The notes under the pieces were generated by a model. It saw nothing but the letters and a program-made list of their open reading frames with translations, was not told the DNA's origin and did no database searches. 53,925 nt of DNA from Sphingomonadales bacterium (GTDB lineage: Bacteria > Pseudomonadota > Alphaproteobacteria > Sphingomonadales > Sphingomonadaceae), in NCBI GenBank assembly GCA_038209235.1, contig JBBQXX010000001.1, positions 1 to 53,925 of the forward strand. The letters run 5' to 3'. The translations under genes and the position numbers were made by a program. This document shows, piece after piece, positions 29,974 to 36,013 of the stretch (positions are counted from its first letter, which is position 1; the number at the start of each line of letters is the position of its first letter).

Positions 29974-30804
29974 ATGAAAAACCGCACCTCCTCCTCTGGC
30001 GAGGCATCATCAAGGAATTGGCTGTTCATGGCTGTCGCTGCTTTGCTTACCATCGCTGCCGGAGTTGGCACCTTCCTGTGGCAGAGCGGCGGGATTACCG
30101 CTGAAACTGGCAAGGCTGCGCAAAATGCGAGCACGGCCGCCGCAGCGGCGGGCTTCGATACGCAGGACAAGGCTGCTATTGAGGCGATCGTGCGCGCCTA
30201 TATCCTGGCAAACCCCGAGATTATTCCTGAAGCGGTGCAGTTGCTCCAGACCCGGCAGGCCGCCAAGCGGATCGATGCGGTGCGCGCCAGTCTGGAGACA
30301 CCGTTTGCCGGGGCCTATACAGGCAACCCCGATGGCGATGTCGTTCTGGTCGAATATTCGGATTTCGCCTGCGGCTTCTGCCGCCAGAGTGTCAGCGATG
30401 TGGCGCGGCTCGTAAACGAGGACAAGAACCTCAAGATTGTCTTTCAAGAGCTTCCTATCCTGTCCGACGAAAGCCGTGTCGCCGCCGCCTGGGGTCTGGC
30501 AGCAGCCCAGCAAGGCAAATATTACGCGTTTTACAAGGCGATGTTCGGCGCGGGAAAGCCTAGCCAGGCCACTATCGAACAGTCAGCCAGAACCGCCGGT
30601 CTGGACATGGCAGCAGCGCGCAGTTTTGCTGCCGCCAAAACCACCGATGAAGTCATCGACGCCAACATCCGCATTGCCCAGCAGCTGGAGTTCAGCGGCA
30701 CGCCCAGTTGGGTGGTGGGCAACAAGGTTTTGAATGGCGCGGTCGGTTATGACGATCTGAAGGCCGCAATCGACGAAGCGCGCGCCGCCAGGGTTGCAGG
30801 CTGA
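29974..30804 (+). CDS. DsbA family protein (Com1-like)
   Basis: YIL.NPEII.EA, EYSDFACGFC (CxxC), ELPIL and GTP motifs. Confidence 0.92.
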   Translation: MKNRTSSSGEASSRNWLFMAVAALLTIAAGVGTFLWQSGGITAETGKAAQNASTAAAAAGFDTQDKAAIEAIVRAYILANPEIIPEAVQLLQTRQAAKRIDAVRASLETPFAGAYTGNPDGDVVLVEYSDFACGFCRQSVSDVARLVNEDKNLKIVFQELPILSDESRVAAAWGLAAAQQGKYYAFYKAMFGAGKPSQATIEQSARTAGLDMAAARSFAAAKTTDEVIDANIRIAQQLEFSGTPSWVVGNKVLNGAVGYDDLKAAIDEARAARVAG

Positions 30805-30814
30805 TTTTGTCAGG

Positions 30815-32632
30815 TCAGGTCCGCAGCCGCACCAGCCGGTACATGCCAATCTGGCCGTAATCTTTGTCGAGTTCCACGCGACCAACATAATACTGGGTGA
30901 ATGCATCGGCATTCTCGAGCGCCAGCATCGCAGCAAAAGCCTCGGTGCAATAGACCGCGCCGGTTGGCGTCACCGGCTCGATCCGCGCGGTACGGGTAAC
31001 CTCGGTGCCAAACCACAACGGTTGCTTCACCACCCGGTCGAACCCCTTGTAGATCGGTCCGTGATGCACACCGATGCGCATCCCCATCTTAGCGCCATTG
31101 CCCGCACCATCGCCTCGCCCGATCAGCTCGGGCGGCGGTGTCGCCAGCCGTTCCTGCAACAGGATGGCGACACGCGCGGCAATCGCGGGGGTCGAGATGA
31201 CCGCGTACACCGCATCGCCCCAGGTGTTGCGAAACAGGATATTATCGCCAAAATCATCGAGCACCTCGCCGATTGCCCCCATGACCTTGGTGGCAAAGGC
31301 AGGCAGTTCGCGCTCGCCCAGCTTCGAAAAGCCTTTGTAATCGGCAAACAGGATCGAATAAGCGCCGCGCTCGAGGGTATCGTCACCCGGATCGACGTAT
31401 GGAAAGTTCAATTGGCGATCAACCGGCCCAGCTTCGACCACCACGCTCTCACGCCCCAGCGCGCGCCACAGCGCCATATCAGCATGCGTGCCCGCAATAT
31501 TCGATCGCACCAGCGCGGCTGCATTATCGCTCAGCACGGCCAGTTGCACCGCGCTGGTCTCCAGCTGGCGGGCGCGGATTTCGGCCAGGCCCAGCGCCAC
31601 ACGGGTGCCATAGGCAAACTGGTTGTCATCGCCGACAAAGGCCGATTCGGTCGCCAGAACGACTTCATCGGCAGCATCGATACAGGCCCGATAGCGTGCC
31701 TCCCAGCCAGCGCCGCCACAGCGCACCGATTGATCGAGAAAATCTGACTCCTTGAACGGCAGCACCACGTTCAGCTCACCACCGCGCGCCAAAATCGCCT
31801 CGGCGACCAATATGTCCGCCCCGCAGGCAAGCGGGCCAAAGGCGATGCAAGTGCCAAGCTCGTCCAGCGCTGTATCGATCCGCACGCGCAGGTCCGGCTC
31901 GGCAGCGCAGCCTTCGACAAACATATGCCCGCAGTAGACCAGAACCGGTGGCGGCCTGAGCGCCTCGATCACCGGAGTTACCAGCGCTGCATCCAAGCCG
32001 GGCCGCGCGGCCAGCCGTTGGAATTGGCGAATGGTCGAGGCGCGATCGGCAAAGGCCACGCCGATGATGCCGCGCACCTGTTGCAGCGCTTCAGCCAGGC
32101 CAGCTGCATCGCCGAGCAAAAAACACGCTTCCATCTGCGATGCGAGCGTCCAGTAATCGGCGTCGCCCGACGCGCCGATTGCCTGTCGCACGCTGGTTGC
32201 AAGTGCGCGCGCTGCTTCGTCCCGGCCAGCGAGCATCATCAGGCTGGCGGCATTGATCGCGGGGTAATGCTCTCCGCTCAAGTCATACGCGCGGACATAG
32301 GCCTCGCCTGCCCGGTGCAACAGATTGGTCCGCTCGACCCCCTGCTGCAAAAACGCCTGCTCTTTGAGGATGCGGCCCCTTAATGCCAGCGAATCGACCG
32401 CATCGTGCGCTTCCAGCCCCAGTTCGTCATAAAGCCGCAAAGCGCCGTCATAATCGCCAAGTTCGGTGGTCAGCCGGACGACCAGATAATCGAGCTGGGG
32501 TGAACGGGTGCCCAGCTCTCTGCCCCGCTGCAGCAGATCAAACGCGGCCAGCACATCACCATGCGCGCGGTCGGCGTCTGCGGTCGCGAGCAGCAGCCCG
32601 GCATCGCGCAGGATTTCATCTTTGGTTGGCAT
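30815..32632 (-). CDS. TPR (TRAF-binding/DUF4071/TPR-S-like) + SLOG-like + class III nucleotide cyclase fusion protein
   Basis: N-terminus: L.GRI.K, Y..INAA, DYW..AS..EA..LLG and ST.RQ helical-repeat motifs. Middle: Rossmannoid YCGHM...GPLACGADILVAEA...VVLPF. C-terminus: ILFADYKGFSKL, NTWGD, RIG.H.GP, FG.EV...ARIEP and G.VY.TE.F cyclase motifs. Confidence 0.85.
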   Translation of the reverse strand: MPTKDEILRDAGLLLATADADRAHGDVLAAFDLLQRGRELGTRSPQLDYLVVRLTTELGDYDGALRLYDELGLEAHDAVDSLALRGRILKEQAFLQQGVERTNLLHRAGEAYVRAYDLSGEHYPAINAASLMMLAGRDEAARALATSVRQAIGASGDADYWTLASQMEACFLLGDAAGLAEALQQVRGIIGVAFADRASTIRQFQRLAARPGLDAALVTPVIEALRPPPVLVYCGHMFVEGCAAEPDLRVRIDTALDELGTCIAFGPLACGADILVAEAILARGGELNVVLPFKESDFLDQSVRCGGAGWEARYRACIDAADEVVLATESAFVGDDNQFAYGTRVALGLAEIRARQLETSAVQLAVLSDNAAALVRSNIAGTHADMALWRALGRESVVVEAGPVDRQLNFPYVDPGDDTLERGAYSILFADYKGFSKLGERELPAFATKVMGAIGEVLDDFGDNILFRNTWGDAVYAVISTPAIAARVAILLQERLATPPPELIGRGDGAGNGAKMGMRIGVHHGPIYKGFDRVVKQPLWFGTEVTRTARIEPVTPTGAVYCTEAFAAMLALENADAFTQYYVGRVELDKDYGQIGMYRLVRLRT

Positions 32633-32635
32633 CGC

Positions 32636-33865
32636 TCAGCGACCCCTTTCGGCGGCGGCAAGCAGATCGACATTGGCCTGCTCGGTGGCGTTCAGGCTGA
32701 CATTATCTGCTACCGGGCGATACCACGCAAAGCGACTGAAATGGTTGCGCAGCGCCGCCTTCTGAAACCGCCGCCCCTTGCGCGCAAAAATCTCGTTGCG
32801 CGCCAGCCGCAGTTGCTGCGGGCCAAGCGCGGCGATGTCAGCCTCGCCCAGCCGGCGCGAATCGGAATCGGGGATGATCTGGCCATCGCGCGAGCCTGTT
32901 GCGGTGCCGGGGCCAGTGACGGGGCCAGTGATGGGGCCGGGAGCAGGTTCCGACGGCGTGGCAGGGACAGCGCCACCCAGGCTGACGGCAGGCGCGGCGG
33001 CCGCCGGTGGCGCAGCGGCCACCGGAACGCCATCGCGCAACAGCCTGATCCGGCTGCGCGCCATAAAGCCGGTCAGGCCATCGGCGGTGCGCACCTGCCA
33101 CCACGACCCGGTTTGTTCAAACGTGGCAAAGGCCTCGCCTGTATTGATCTTGCCGACAATTTCCGCATTAGTGGCAGGCTTGGCGCGGATGTTGGTAAAA
33201 CCATCGGGATCATCGATCATTGCGGCAAGGCGATAGCGTCCCGTTGCATCATCGCTGGCATTCGGCGCGTCGCTCGCCTGACTGTCTTCGGCGGTCTGCG
33301 GGGTTTGCGGTTCGAGGGTATCCTGAACATCACCGCCCAATGCCATCCAGGCGGCAGCCACCAGGACAAGCAGCAGAACCACCGTCCCTGCCCCCAGCAA
33401 TGCAGGCGACAGGCGCGATCCGGCGGGCGGTGGCGGCGCAGGTGACACAGCCGCGATGGGCTGGATGTTCCCCGGCGGTCCACACAAATCGCTAAGGCTG
33501 GCCTGCACCTTACGCCATCCCGAATGGTCCGCCTGCCCCTGCCAGTCGGCCAGCGAGGCAAACTGGATCTGGTTGAATGGCATTGGCGGCATAACGTCAT
33601 CATAGGATGTCTGGATCAGCTTTTTCTGGTTGCGCGCCAGATCGGCCTCCGCCCGCACCCATTCGGATTGCGCCGCATCGGCAGACCAGCAAACGATCGC
33701 AGCACGCGCAGCAGCGATCATCTCGGTGATGACATCGCCATAGCTTTTGTGCGGCGGCAGTTCGTCATCCCACCAGACGACATAGCCCAGCGCCTTGACC
33801 GCATCGGCCAGCACCCGCACGCGTTCGCGGTTGCTGCGTGAATAGGATATGAAAACATCGACCAT
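32636..33865 (-). CDS. TIR domain - TM - SH3b - YARHG protein
   Basis: TIR: DVFISYSR...WWD...WS..A..SEWVRAEA. One hydrophobic helix at 33342-33403. SH3b: DPDGFTNIRAKP...WWQV....G.TGFM..S.I. YARHG-type: LRLARNEIFARKGRRF...HF..F.WY.P...E..N..L. Confidence 0.88.
   Translation of the reverse strand: MVDVFISYSRSNRERVRVLADAVKALGYVVWWDDELPPHKSYGDVITEMIAAARAAIVCWSADAAQSEWVRAEADLARNQKKLIQTSYDDVMPPMPFNQIQFASLADWQGQADHSGWRKVQASLSDLCGPPGNIQPIAAVSPAPPPPAGSRLSPALLGAGTVVLLLVLVAAAWMALGGDVQDTLEPQTPQTAEDSQASDAPNASDDATGRYRLAAMIDDPDGFTNIRAKPATNAEIVGKINTGEAFATFEQTGSWWQVRTADGLTGFMARSRIRLLRDGVPVAAAPPAAAAPAVSLGGAVPATPSEPAPGPITGPVTGPGTATGSRDGQIIPDSDSRRLGEADIAALGPQQLRLARNEIFARKGRRFQKAALRNHFSRFAWYRPVADNVSLNATEQANVDLLAAAERGR
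32909..32938 (-). repeat. In-frame 12-bp tandem repeat (GPIT/GPVT) in the SH3b-YARHG linker
   Basis: GGGGCCAGTGAC GGGGCCAGTGAT GGGGCC on the + strand. Confidence 0.85.
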
Positions 33866-33984: not shown

Positions 33985-34992
33985 ATGATCCGGCTGTTGC
34001 TTGCCCTGCTGTGCTTTACGCTGTCGCCCTTTGCGCATGCCGCACCTGCGCCCGATGCCGCCGCCGGACTGGCAGACCTTCGCGCAGCCGACGCGCGGGT
34101 GCTGACAATCGGTTACCGCCTCGCCACCACAAACGCACCGTTTTGCCGCGTGACCGAGAATGCATCGGGCATGACGCTGCATCACATTGGCCAATATGGC
34201 GATGGGGCGGCAGCGCGTGCGACCTTCGGCTTTGCCCGCGAATATGCGGTGCTGGCGCTGGTGGCCGATGGTCCGGCGGCAAAAGCCGGGGTGCAGATCG
34301 ACGATGCGCTGGTCGCGGTGAACGGCAGCAGCCTGCAGCCGACGGCAGCCCAGCTTGCCGCCATCGACCAGCCTGCGGCCTATCGCCCGATCGCCTGGGC
34401 AGACGCGACATTGCGTGCCGCGCTGGACACCGCGCCTGTCAGGCTCTCGGTGCTGCGCGATGGTGCGGCTGTCGATGTCACTTTAACCGGGGTTCGCTCC
34501 TGCCGCAGCCGCTTCGAACTTCGCCCGACCAGCAACTATGGCGCGTCGGCCGATGGCGATATCGTCAGTATCACCAGCGCGATGCTGGGTTTCATGGCTG
34601 ACGATGACGAACTGGCCGCAATTCTGGCGCACGAGATGGCGCACAACCTGCTGGAACACCGCCGCAGGCTGAACGACGCGGGGATACAGCGCGGCCTGAT
34701 GCAGCAGCTGGGCCGCAACGCGCGGCTGACGCTGGCCACAGAGATCGAGGCGGACCGGCTGTCGATCTGGCTGATGGCCAACGCCGGTTTCGATCCGGCA
34801 GGTGCGGTGCGGTTCTGGACGCGATACGGCAAGCAACGCGGCAAAGGCATTTTCTCAGCCCCGACGCATTACCGCTGGAAAAAACGCGTCGCGCTGTTCG
34901 AGGAGGAAATCGCCAAGCTGGCGGCGGCACACCGTCAGCCCGAAGGCTGGATGCCGCCTTTGCTTGCCGAAACGCCACCGCCACTGCAATAA
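33985..34992 (+). CDS. Secreted M48 metallopeptidase with PDZ-like domain
   Basis: Signal peptide ending AHA; GPAAKAGV..DD.LV.VNG (PDZ); DDELAAILAHEMAHN, E.EAD and PTH motifs. Confidence 0.88.
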   Translation: MIRLLLALLCFTLSPFAHAAPAPDAAAGLADLRAADARVLTIGYRLATTNAPFCRVTENASGMTLHHIGQYGDGAAARATFGFAREYAVLALVADGPAAKAGVQIDDALVAVNGSSLQPTAAQLAAIDQPAAYRPIAWADATLRAALDTAPVRLSVLRDGAAVDVTLTGVRSCRSRFELRPTSNYGASADGDIVSITSAMLGFMADDDELAAILAHEMAHNLLEHRRRLNDAGIQRGLMQQLGRNARLTLATEIEADRLSIWLMANAGFDPAGAVRFWTRYGKQRGKGIFSAPTHYRWKKRVALFEEEIAKLAAAHRQPEGWMPPLLAETPPPLQ

Positions 34993-34999
34993 GCTACGA

Positions 35000-36013
35000 T
35001 CACGCCCTTGCTGCCGGTCTCCGCGCCAATTCCAGCGCAAAGGCAGCCAGTAACGGCAAAAACATGAACGTCGCACCCCACGTCATAGAAATGATCAGCC
35101 AGACAAGATCGAGATTGTCCGCCGAATAAAGGCGCTCGGGTTCCAGACCGAAACCGGCCCGGATAAGTGGATAGTCGCCCGGACACTGGCTTTCAGTATC
35201 CTGCGAGGGTGCCAGCTTGCCGCCAACCGCCTGACGAATCTGCTTCTGCGCATCTTCACGCCAGCCACAGCCAAGCACCATCCGGTCGCGCGCGGCATCT
35301 TCAAACACGAACCTTTGGCTGATCAAATTATAGCCTATTGCCGAGCTGAACGTCGCAAGCGTCGCTATGACTGCAAGCTGGATCAAGGTTTTGCGGGCCA
35401 ATGTTTTAGCGATCAACAATCCCACGACAAAAAAGGCTGCTACCATGAAGGCCAGAATGACAGTTTGTACGTTGCCTTCAGGCGGCGCAAATCCAGCCAG
35501 CCAGCCAACCACTGGCAACGCTGGGAGCAGCACGACCAGCAATGGCATGGTTATATCTGTTCGCTCCGCGCTTGGTCTGGGCCTCGCGGCCTGAGTCGCT
35601 ATCTCGGACAAAGGCTGTGAACTGCGACCGTTGAGCGCTGCTGCGCTGGCGCATATACTACGCCATGCCGGGTCATTGCGGTCGCCTGTCCAGTGACCCA
35701 TGCGAACACACTGCATCTGATCAAAGGGCATGGGCAGTATCGCATCGTCAATGGCTGCCTGAATCAGTTTACCAGCCTGTCGCGCCCGGTCCGCTTCGGA
35801 ACGCACCCATTGTGAACGTGCGGCCTCCTGCGACCAGACGACCAATACCGCTTTGGCGCCACCAAGTTGCTCTTCGATTTCCTCACCATAGTTGCGATGT
35901 GCCTGCAGCTTGCGGTCCCACCAGACGTCAAAGCCTTCATCGACAAGGGCTGCGGCAATATTTTCTGTCTGCTCATGCGTTCGGCTTGAATAGGAAATAA
36001 AAATATCCGCCAT
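35000..36013 (-). CDS. TIR domain protein with about four C-terminal TM helices
   Basis: DIFISYS...WWD...WS..AA.SQWVRSEA TIR domain followed by four hydrophobic segments; visibly more AT-rich than its neighbours. Confidence 0.87.
   Translation of the reverse strand: MADIFISYSSRTHEQTENIAAALVDEGFDVWWDRKLQAHRNYGEEIEEQLGGAKAVLVVWSQEAARSQWVRSEADRARQAGKLIQAAIDDAILPMPFDQMQCVRMGHWTGDRNDPAWRSICASAAALNGRSSQPLSEIATQAARPRPSAERTDITMPLLVVLLPALPVVGWLAGFAPPEGNVQTVILAFMVAAFFVVGLLIAKTLARKTLIQLAVIATLATFSSAIGYNLISQRFVFEDAARDRMVLGCGWREDAQKQIRQAVGGKLAPSQDTESQCPGDYPLIRAGFGLEPERLYSADNLDLVWLIISMTWGATFMFLPLLAAFALELARRPAARA

Follow-up and report, generated by a model that had tools for sequence, protein, structure and literature searches.

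The window analysed here is a stretch of 53,925 nucleotides from a Sphingomonadales bacterium (GenBank: GCA_038209235.1, contig JBBQXX010000001.1, positions 1 to 53,925), and we describe a pair of genes in it that encode a TIR receptor-like protein and a nucleotide cyclase. Gene 1 (P0001, 409 amino acids; 32636..33865, reverse strand) is a predicted type II membrane receptor with a TIR domain, a single transmembrane (TM) helix, an SH3b domain and a YARHG domain. Gene 2 (P0002, 605 amino acids; 30815..32632, reverse strand) is predicted to be soluble and combines a TPR-S region, a YpsA-like SLOG domain and a class III nucleotide cyclase. A gap of 3 nucleotides (32633..32635, reverse strand) separates the stop codon of gene 1 from the start codon of gene 2, a purine-rich run resembling a ribosome-binding site lies inside the end of gene 1 before that start, and translational coupling of the two genes is likely, judging by this arrangement. 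Stop and start overlap by 1, 4 or 11 nucleotides in 35 of the 39 homologous pairs that were measured. The neighbours of the pair, both on the forward strand, are a DsbA gene at 29974-30804 and, in divergent orientation, a PDZ-M48 peptidase gene at 33985-34992. An earlier reading of the bare letters, called the original prediction hereafter, had placed two co-oriented open reading frames 3 nucleotides apart between these two neighbours, in agreement with our coordinates. The GC content of the pair is in line with that of its flanks, the closest named homologues come from Blastomonas and Sphingopyxis, and a scan of the region for promoters and terminators gave no signal above shuffles.

Gene 1 begins with a TIR_2 domain (residues 4-110, 33536..33856, reverse strand, Pfam E 8e-18), in which the catalytic-type Glu73 (33647-33649) sits in the motif SEWVRAE; a glutamate of this type is present in all 65 aligned TIRs. 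The TM helix (residues 156-174, 33344..33400, reverse strand, hydropathy 2.44) is preceded by an arginine and followed by an acidic stalk, and no N-terminal signal peptide was seen by inspection. The basic residue before the helix and the acidic stalk after it suggest a topology with the TIR inside and the sensor domains outside. The SH3b domain (SH3_3, Pfam: PF08239; residues 224-271, 33053..33196, reverse strand, E 2.4e-11) and the YARHG domain (Pfam: PF13308; residues 330-406, 32648..32878, reverse strand, E 3.2e-21) are both predicted to be periplasmic, with a mean identity over 14 partners of 61% and 56%, respectively. Thus the TIR with its intact glutamate, the one TM helix and the two sensor domains that had been read from the letters were all found by Pfam and hydropathy. 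YARHG, which is found outside membrane kinases, has been hypothesised, though not proven, to bind peptidoglycan, and Gram-negatives have a weaker form of its motif (PMC3355149). Of 63 partner TIR proteins, 60 have a hydrophobic segment after the TIR.

The AlphaFold model of gene 2 has a predicted local distance difference test score (pLDDT) of 90.9, from 28 alignment rows. Its helical TPR-S region (residues 1-225, 31958..32632, reverse strand; Pfam: PF20308, E 1.4e-12) resembles the fold of the ASK1 central regulatory region (PDB: 5ulm, Z 17.4, root-mean-square deviation (rmsd) 3.3, 213 residues aligned). In Pfam, gene 2 matches TPR-S above the cut-off at residues 29-132, MAP3K_TRAF_bd, and Guanylate_cyc at residues 425-589. 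These three domains, TPR-S, SLOG and cyclase, cover the whole protein and no SIR2 domain is present. No PADLOC family was found for gene 2 at E 0.1 and no NCBIfam match, and an Atlas search with a homologue returned uncharacterised TPR-S/cyclase clusters only.

The middle domain (residues 227-403, 31424..31954, reverse strand) is detectable by fold search alone and not by sequence profiles: it had no Pfam match at E 5, and the PDB profile gave only a weak LOG match with E 1.2. Folded alone (pLDDT 93.7), it matches YpsA (PDB: 2nx2) with Z 17.2, rmsd 2.4 and 153 aligned residues, and with Z 17.5 in the whole-protein model. YpsA is followed by DprA (Z 11.6), LOG proteins (Z 7.6-9.1), TRPM domains and ThsA (PDB: 7uxs, Z 6.4), and Foldseek agrees with YpsA ranking first. 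In a set of 147 distant relatives, drawn from the 1,235 clusters that make up the family at E 1e-30, residues G235, G266, G271, D273 and E278 are conserved at 95-99% (G271 at 97%, D273 at 95%). The GxD motif at 271-273 fits the GxD/E signature of the YpsA clade by pattern and not by residue-level superposition. Because the AlphaFold model matches YpsA, the middle domain is, at the level of the model, a SLOG domain of the YpsA clade. The SLOG fold proposed by the original prediction was thereby borne out, but the kinship to ThsA that it had drawn on was not. The order TPR-S, SLOG and class III cyclase likewise stands, from Pfam for the outer two domains and from the fold for the middle one.

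The cyclase domain (residues 418-605, 30818..31381, reverse strand) is closest to CyaB (PDB: 3r5g, Z 21.4). Conservation among the 147 relatives is 95-100% for residues D431, D473, R519, R550 and K590, including the two metal aspartates (D431 in 99%, D473 in 100%) and the transition-state arginine (R550 in 99%). Canonical class III cyclases select the base with a Lys/Asp pair for ATP or a Glu/Cys pair for GTP and have in addition a catalytic Asn. In gene 2, N469 (93%), L539 (variable) and T546 (Thr/Ser) stand where Lys, Asp and Asn are expected, so the standard base-selecting pair and Asn of adenylyl and guanylyl cyclases are missing. The cyclase looks active by its residues, and its product is not predictable from them.

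The pairing of TIR and SLOG-cyclase genes was examined in two sets. The first consists of the best 80 of at least 581 relatives in GTDB contigs, ranked by similarity. Here a TIR gene was found in the locus at 60 loci, within 1.2 kb at 59 of them, and a wider profile returned the same 60; five of the remaining 20 have short flanks, and in one of these the SH3b-YARHG part of a receptor is still visible at the end. The second set is a sample of the order that is not ranked by similarity, in which 251 evenly drawn genomes gave 57 loci in 55 genomes, all of them examined. A TIR lies within 3 kb at 52 of these 57 loci, namely at 14 of the 16 loci of the window's clade and at 38 of the 41 loci of a sister clade. 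Neighbouring TIR, Crp and pNTSase1 genes were called with home-made profiles built from few loci, which may miss some, pNTSase1 most of all. From the TIR density of the window's genome, a TIR neighbour would be expected by chance at about 0.6% of loci. The pairing is beyond chance, and the module is real, conserved and uncharacterised.

Could the two genes be neighbours by descent only, without functional coupling? In a quick tree (from which L055, with a split gene, was left out and to which three outside rows were added) one clade of 52 rows carries most of the upstream receptor pairs, and much of the 80-locus count is this one inherited arrangement. Lone cyclases also exist, including one in genome G012 at the syntenic site of the window with no TIR beside it. 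Since related loci are not independent and the counts are inflated, the varied layouts are the weightier evidence: the TIR gene is found upstream, downstream, convergent or divergent relative to the cyclase, and the partner TIRs, which belong to several subfamilies, have SH3b/YARHG, LprI, TPR, WD40, FHA or multi-TM sensors. In one case (P0271) a TPR-S-SLOG-cyclase protein is fused to TIR-TM, although this fusion is known from one record only, on a contig of 5 kb, and is possibly an assembly error. With these layouts and the TIR neighbours at 38 of the 41 loci of the separate sister clade, we find neighbourhood by descent alone scarcely credible.

At the level of genomes, all 13 with a gene 2 homologue have TIR_2, compared to 18 of 48 without one, among 61 relatives. 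Genomes with a lone cyclase carry two to nine TIR_2 matches elsewhere (10 of 10 examined, out of 15 such genomes); of the 43 matches 25 TIRs were retrieved, 22 of these with a TM segment and five with the motif of gene 1. A TIR of the gene 1 type (at least 65% identity) occurs in eight of the 251 genomes, all of which have a close-clade SLOG-cyclase, adjacent in seven and 827 kb away in one. In G012, a distant TIR is 65% identical to the fused TIR of P0271. A DDE transposase gene (L015:9095-9733) stands just after the lone cyclase of this genome, and at another locus (L055:6311-8713) the cyclase gene is split into two open reading frames.

We propose, with a probability of roughly 55%, that the module relays an envelope cue by way of a TIR messenger to a SLOG-gated cyclase and from there to a Crp-type transcription factor. 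Gene 1 would be the membrane-spanning TIR receptor, its topology being predicted from sequence, and a peptidoglycan or other envelope cue would cluster it, as its domain families suggest. The TIR, with its catalytic-type glutamate in place, would cleave NAD+ to a derivative of ADP-ribose (ADPR), and the SLOG domain would bind this product, to which its fold, its conserved pocket and its linkage to TIR genes point. The bound ligand would switch on the cyclase, whose catalytic residues are kept, to make a cyclic nucleotide monophosphate (cNMP). A Crp protein would read the cNMP, as is suggested by linkage and matched loss in the sister clade only; in the window's genome the reader would be encoded elsewhere, with G000:C23:10272-10952 as candidate. 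Several TIR receptors, among them the product of the second TIR gene of the window (gene 3), likely feed into the cyclase as a common hub, and the relay likely ends in altered gene expression without killing the cell. A broader proposal, to which we give somewhat less than even odds, is a sphingomonad Toll-like pathway in which single-pass TIR receptors with interchangeable sensors, an ADPR-type messenger, a SLOG-cyclase hub, a possibly non-standard cNMP and Crp act in series. For the two-messenger cascade of the original prediction there is thus genomic support from the SLOG fold, the TIR linkage, the receptor topology, the catalytic residues and the Crp genes of the sister clade.

Gene 3 (P0003, 337 amino acids; 35000..36013, reverse strand) had been missed by the original prediction, which had the pair itself right. 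It has a TIR domain (Pfam: PF13676, E 2.8e-17) and three hydrophobic segments, lies 1.1 kb from the gene pair and is inserted between an HD gene and the PDZ-M48 peptidase gene. Over its full length (323 residues aligned) it is 31% identical to the TIR protein whose gene lies immediately upstream of the SLOG-cyclase gene in locus L100, and it is likely, by this homology, a second input to the gene 2 cyclase. A third TIR gene of the same genome, of a different type and without known sensor domain (G000:C38:14032-15321, in L026), is found downstream of an MFS gene and a gene of 609 amino acids; homologues of the latter (about 50% and 66% identity) precede a TIR-cyclase pair in Sphingopyxis. In genome G003 (L014:443-5659) a second TIR-TM-LprI gene, a ricin-lectin gene and an MliC gene precede the pair, so lysozyme-inhibitor-type domains cluster with the module there.

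Which domain of gene 2 receives the signal can be approached through a clade of 24 loci that lacks TPR-S and keeps SLOG and cyclase, with an adjacent TIR kept in 16 of the 24. Because this clade mostly keeps its TIR and SLOG is present throughout, SLOG would be the likelier receiver rather than TPR-S. In type VIII Thoeris, TPR-S is the presumed messenger binder (bioRxiv 10.64898/2025.12.03.692087), and by analogy TPR-S may also bind the messenger here. The same clade bears on a reading in which the TIR, as an adaptor without diffusible messenger, touches TPR-S or SLOG directly and thereby switches on the cyclase. The frequent gene overlaps (35 of 39) and the P0271 fusion would fit a complex of fixed stoichiometry, TPR-S is similar to the ASK1 scaffold, and BcTir and BcTpr act as a complex (bioRxiv 10.1101/2023.05.26.542521). 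However, TPR-S is lost in these 24 of the 80 loci with the TIR mostly retained, partner TIRs of different subfamilies interchange, the TIR glutamate is invariant, and lone cyclases coexist with distant TIRs. We therefore regard direct contact as improbable; a complex prediction for the TIR domain with gene 2 scored 0.00 and was counted neither for nor against.

The evidence for Crp as the output of the proposed relay comes from the sister clade. The usual gene order there is TIR-TM(-TPR), a gene of 200 amino acids sometimes matching pNTSase1, TPR-S-SLOG-cyclase and a convergent Crp gene (L017-L025, L163-L194). Crp is found within 1 kb at 36 of the 41 loci, and pNTSase1 (Pfam: PF20301) is matched in at least 11. 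The Gly-Glu..Arg cassette binds the ribose and the cyclic phosphate (PMC11224242). Among 39 aligned Crps of the sister clade the cassette is intact in all 15 loci with both cyclase aspartates (the catalytic site holds Arg in 13 and Lys in two of them) and lost in all 24 degenerate ones. This joint decay of cyclase and Crp pocket, with SLOG and TIR kept, hints that such members have gone over to a different signal or to direct contact. A further link between the core and cNMP binding is P0388, a single-member cluster in which an OmpR-type helix-turn-helix, BTAD and a cNMP-binding domain are fused to the TPR-S-SLOG-cyclase core. The same core carries an unannotated N-terminal region of 315 amino acids in P0244, and alpha/beta N-terminal regions of about 175 amino acids in P0250 and P0258, each again a single-member cluster. 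The extension of P0250 and P0258 was considered as a Macro domain and dropped, as it is Macro-like by eye only and has no such Pfam match.

The sister clade also bears on the idea that SLOG is a LOG-like hydrolase which modifies or clears the TIR product, or itself produces the messenger, so that gene 2 would be a processing or feedback unit. SLOG proteins have been predicted as sensors or as nucleotide-processing enzymes (PMC6459960; PMC9503650), the acidic pocket of D273 and E278 is near invariant, and in the sister clade SLOG and the TIR linkage persist where the cyclase has decayed, often with a pNTSase1-like gene in between. LOG hydrolases, however, match the domain less well than YpsA does, and the cyclase motif is kept in all 16 loci of the window's clade, which leaves the enzyme reading a slim chance.

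The order of events could furthermore be reversed as in Pycsar, with the cyclase acting first and its cyclic nucleotide activating the TIR as an NAD-depleting effector. Two-gene units of cyclase and TIR define Pycsar-TIR (PMC11224242), and the gene 2 cyclase is without the standard purine-selecting pair. Yet no cNMP-binding domain was found on P0001, P0003 or the scanned partner TIRs, gene 2 has no PycC model match and pyrimidine cyclases (PycC structures) fit it less well (Z 15.7-17.5) than CyaB (Z 21.4), and the TIR carries its own sensor domains. We consider this order very unlikely.

Several observations weigh against the proposed relay from TIR messenger to Crp. The pair is not obligatory, as 15 of the 80 loci have long flanks without a TIR neighbour; the recurrence expected by the original prediction holds with this restriction. 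Among 16 genomes with more distant TIRs (38-57% identity), 10 are without a SLOG match. Outside the class, a TIR neighbour was found at none of six full-length homologues, some of them on short contigs, which neighbour phosphatase/STAS, STAND or vWA genes instead. The cyclase motif fails in 27 of the 41 sister-clade loci, 25 of them clearly degenerate, and since the TIR linkage outlasts this decay, the cyclase is not always what the linkage preserves. The matched loss of Crp cassette and cyclase represents, according to the tree, probably one to three events and not 39. In the window's clade none of the 16 loci has a linked Crp. The Crp on C23 scores 108 bits, compared to 175-273 for members, and so is no clear orthologue of the Crps that are linked. 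Regarding the receiver, the gene 2 SLOG is far from that of ThsA, the sole bacterial SLOG shown to bind a TIR product, and the YpsA of B. subtilis, which stands alone and has been linked to cell division, has no known ligand (PMC6459960). In BcTir/Tpr, it was the TPR protein and not the TIR that was the NADase (bioRxiv 10.1101/2023.05.26.542521).

That no dedicated cNMP-binding effector is visible in the window had been noted by the original prediction and was confirmed, with no cNMP-binding gene anywhere on the contig. Other contigs of the genome have eight cNMP-binding matches, and the candidate on C23 keeps the cassette. On contig C50 (G000:C50:1394-12751) a gene of 969 amino acids, a class III cyclase of 964 amino acids, about six short genes and a Crp-like gene are co-oriented. 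In L116-L118, from outside the class, the core shares its operon with genes for a cNMP-binding transporter, a Cache-SpoIIE-HATPase protein and a STAS protein, and a TIR was not detected there. In addition, there are cyclase-TPR-S proteins of about 490 amino acids with the cyclase at the N-terminus (L121:5876-7348, L124:7278-8723, L122 and L123); two of these four genes adjoin TIR genes, one of them FHA-TIR.

The same relay could serve as a Thoeris-like anti-phage system, in which phage adsorption or wall damage is sensed and the cyclase output leads to dormancy or death. TIR with SLOG is the logic of type I Thoeris, TIR with a TPR-bearing effector is that of type VIII Thoeris, which was shown to defend (bioRxiv 10.64898/2025.12.03.692087), and BcTir/Tpr defends in E. 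coli (bioRxiv 10.1101/2023.05.26.542521). The module is also patchy, with 55 of the 251 genomes carrying it, and its TIR partners are exchanged and lost while the site stays the same. On the other hand, the recurrent neighbours are housekeeping genes that are stable within genera. PADLOC gave eight matches on 76 neighbour proteins (44 window genes and 32 recurrent neighbours), namely Lon, two cysteine desulfurases, an RsmB-like and a UbiG-like methyltransferase, a DEAD helicase, MoaA and one partial match, all of which are housekeeping look-alikes by inspection, and gene 2 itself has no match. The quick tree of the cyclase follows the genera, the linked genes provide a transcription factor as output and no killing domain, and the sensor domains are well conserved. 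An anti-phage role ending in dormancy or death is in our view unlikely, albeit with a modest chance. A non-lethal envelope response is likelier than phage defence because of the housekeeping neighbours and a transcription factor as output, and defence against phages or predators through a non-lethal response is possible. The original prediction had left signalling and defence side by side; the conserved signalling pair stands and the defence-island context does not.

In the papers examined, the bacterial TIR signals that have been characterised lead to death or arrest of the cell when phages infect it. If the proposed relay is true, the path from receptor-TIR through cyclase to Crp would place TIR messengers in ordinary sensing and gene control, chain two second messengers in non-lethal TIR signalling that ends in transcription, and give the YpsA clade its first ligand. 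The module is also a small testable system for the ligands of YpsA-type SLOG domains, the role of TPR-S and the product of a cyclase with the N-T-W-G-D motif. Its interest is tempered by the fact that the parts were already predicted bioinformatically.

Burroughs and Aravind (2020) are said to be the source of the Pfam names TPR-S and pNTSase1 and reportedly predicted TPR-S systems. Such systems, as defined in the citing preprints, have a TPR-S scaffold (Pfam: PF20308) beside a TIR or another NAD-processing gene, as is the case here, and the sister module also has the pNTSase1 family (Pfam: PF20301) of these systems. Assemblies of TPR-S with TIR and with YpsA were listed earlier (bioRxiv 10.1101/2023.05.26.542521), and adenylyl/guanylyl cyclase is named among the YpsA-family contexts (PMC6459960, legend of Fig. 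1A), so the parts, TPR-S with TIR and YpsA with cyclase, were predicted before. A literature search, which did not cover subscription journals and bioRxiv supplements, returned no experimental study of a cyclase-bearing TPR-S member, and no paper combining TPR-S with SLOG and cyclase or a TIR domain with YARHG. The module is not described in the available parts of PMC9503650, PMC8195603, PMC7159879 and bioRxiv 10.64898/2026.10.19.760177. The TIR survey behind type VIII Thoeris discarded multi-gene systems with PF00211 (bioRxiv 10.64898/2025.12.03.692087), and the module is therefore outside the scope of that survey.

Type I Thoeris (ThsB with TIR, ThsA with SIR2-SLOG) likewise combines a TIR with the catalytic glutamate and a SLOG-containing enzyme predicted to be a ligand-gated switch. 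The effectors differ: ThsA has its own type of SLOG (Z 6.4 here) and a SIR2 NADase as output, whereas gene 2 has a YpsA-like SLOG and a cyclase. Moreover, the TIR of the module is membrane-anchored with outside sensors, and no defence-island location was seen among the 76 neighbours. The module thus resembles type I Thoeris in logic and falls outside it in effector and context. In type VIII Thoeris (ThsB and ThsI, with cyclic ADPR) the effector is a nucleotide hydrolase without SLOG or cyclase, defined as CMP-hydrolase and TPR; gene 2 has TPR-S with SLOG and cyclase as enzyme domains, and its TPR-S is dispensable in the module. Pycsar (PycC with PycTIR or PycTM) also has a class III cyclase beside a TIR gene. 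The module differs from it in having no match to the PycC family, a TIR without cNMP-binding domain, the additional TPR-S and SLOG domains and a predicted order in which the TIR acts first; the linked cNMP binders are Crp regulators and not TIR or TM effectors. With the YpsA clade, the gene 2 SLOG has the fold (Z 17.2) and the GxD motif in common.

Animal Toll-like receptors are single-pass proteins with the sensor outside and the TIR inside, and their output is a kinase cascade. Gene 1 shares this plan by prediction, which makes it an analogue only. It has its TIR at the N-terminus and hence the opposite orientation, its TIR is of the enzyme type, and the predicted output is a cyclic nucleotide and not a kinase cascade, while the TPR-S region of gene 2 matches the central regulatory region of ASK1.

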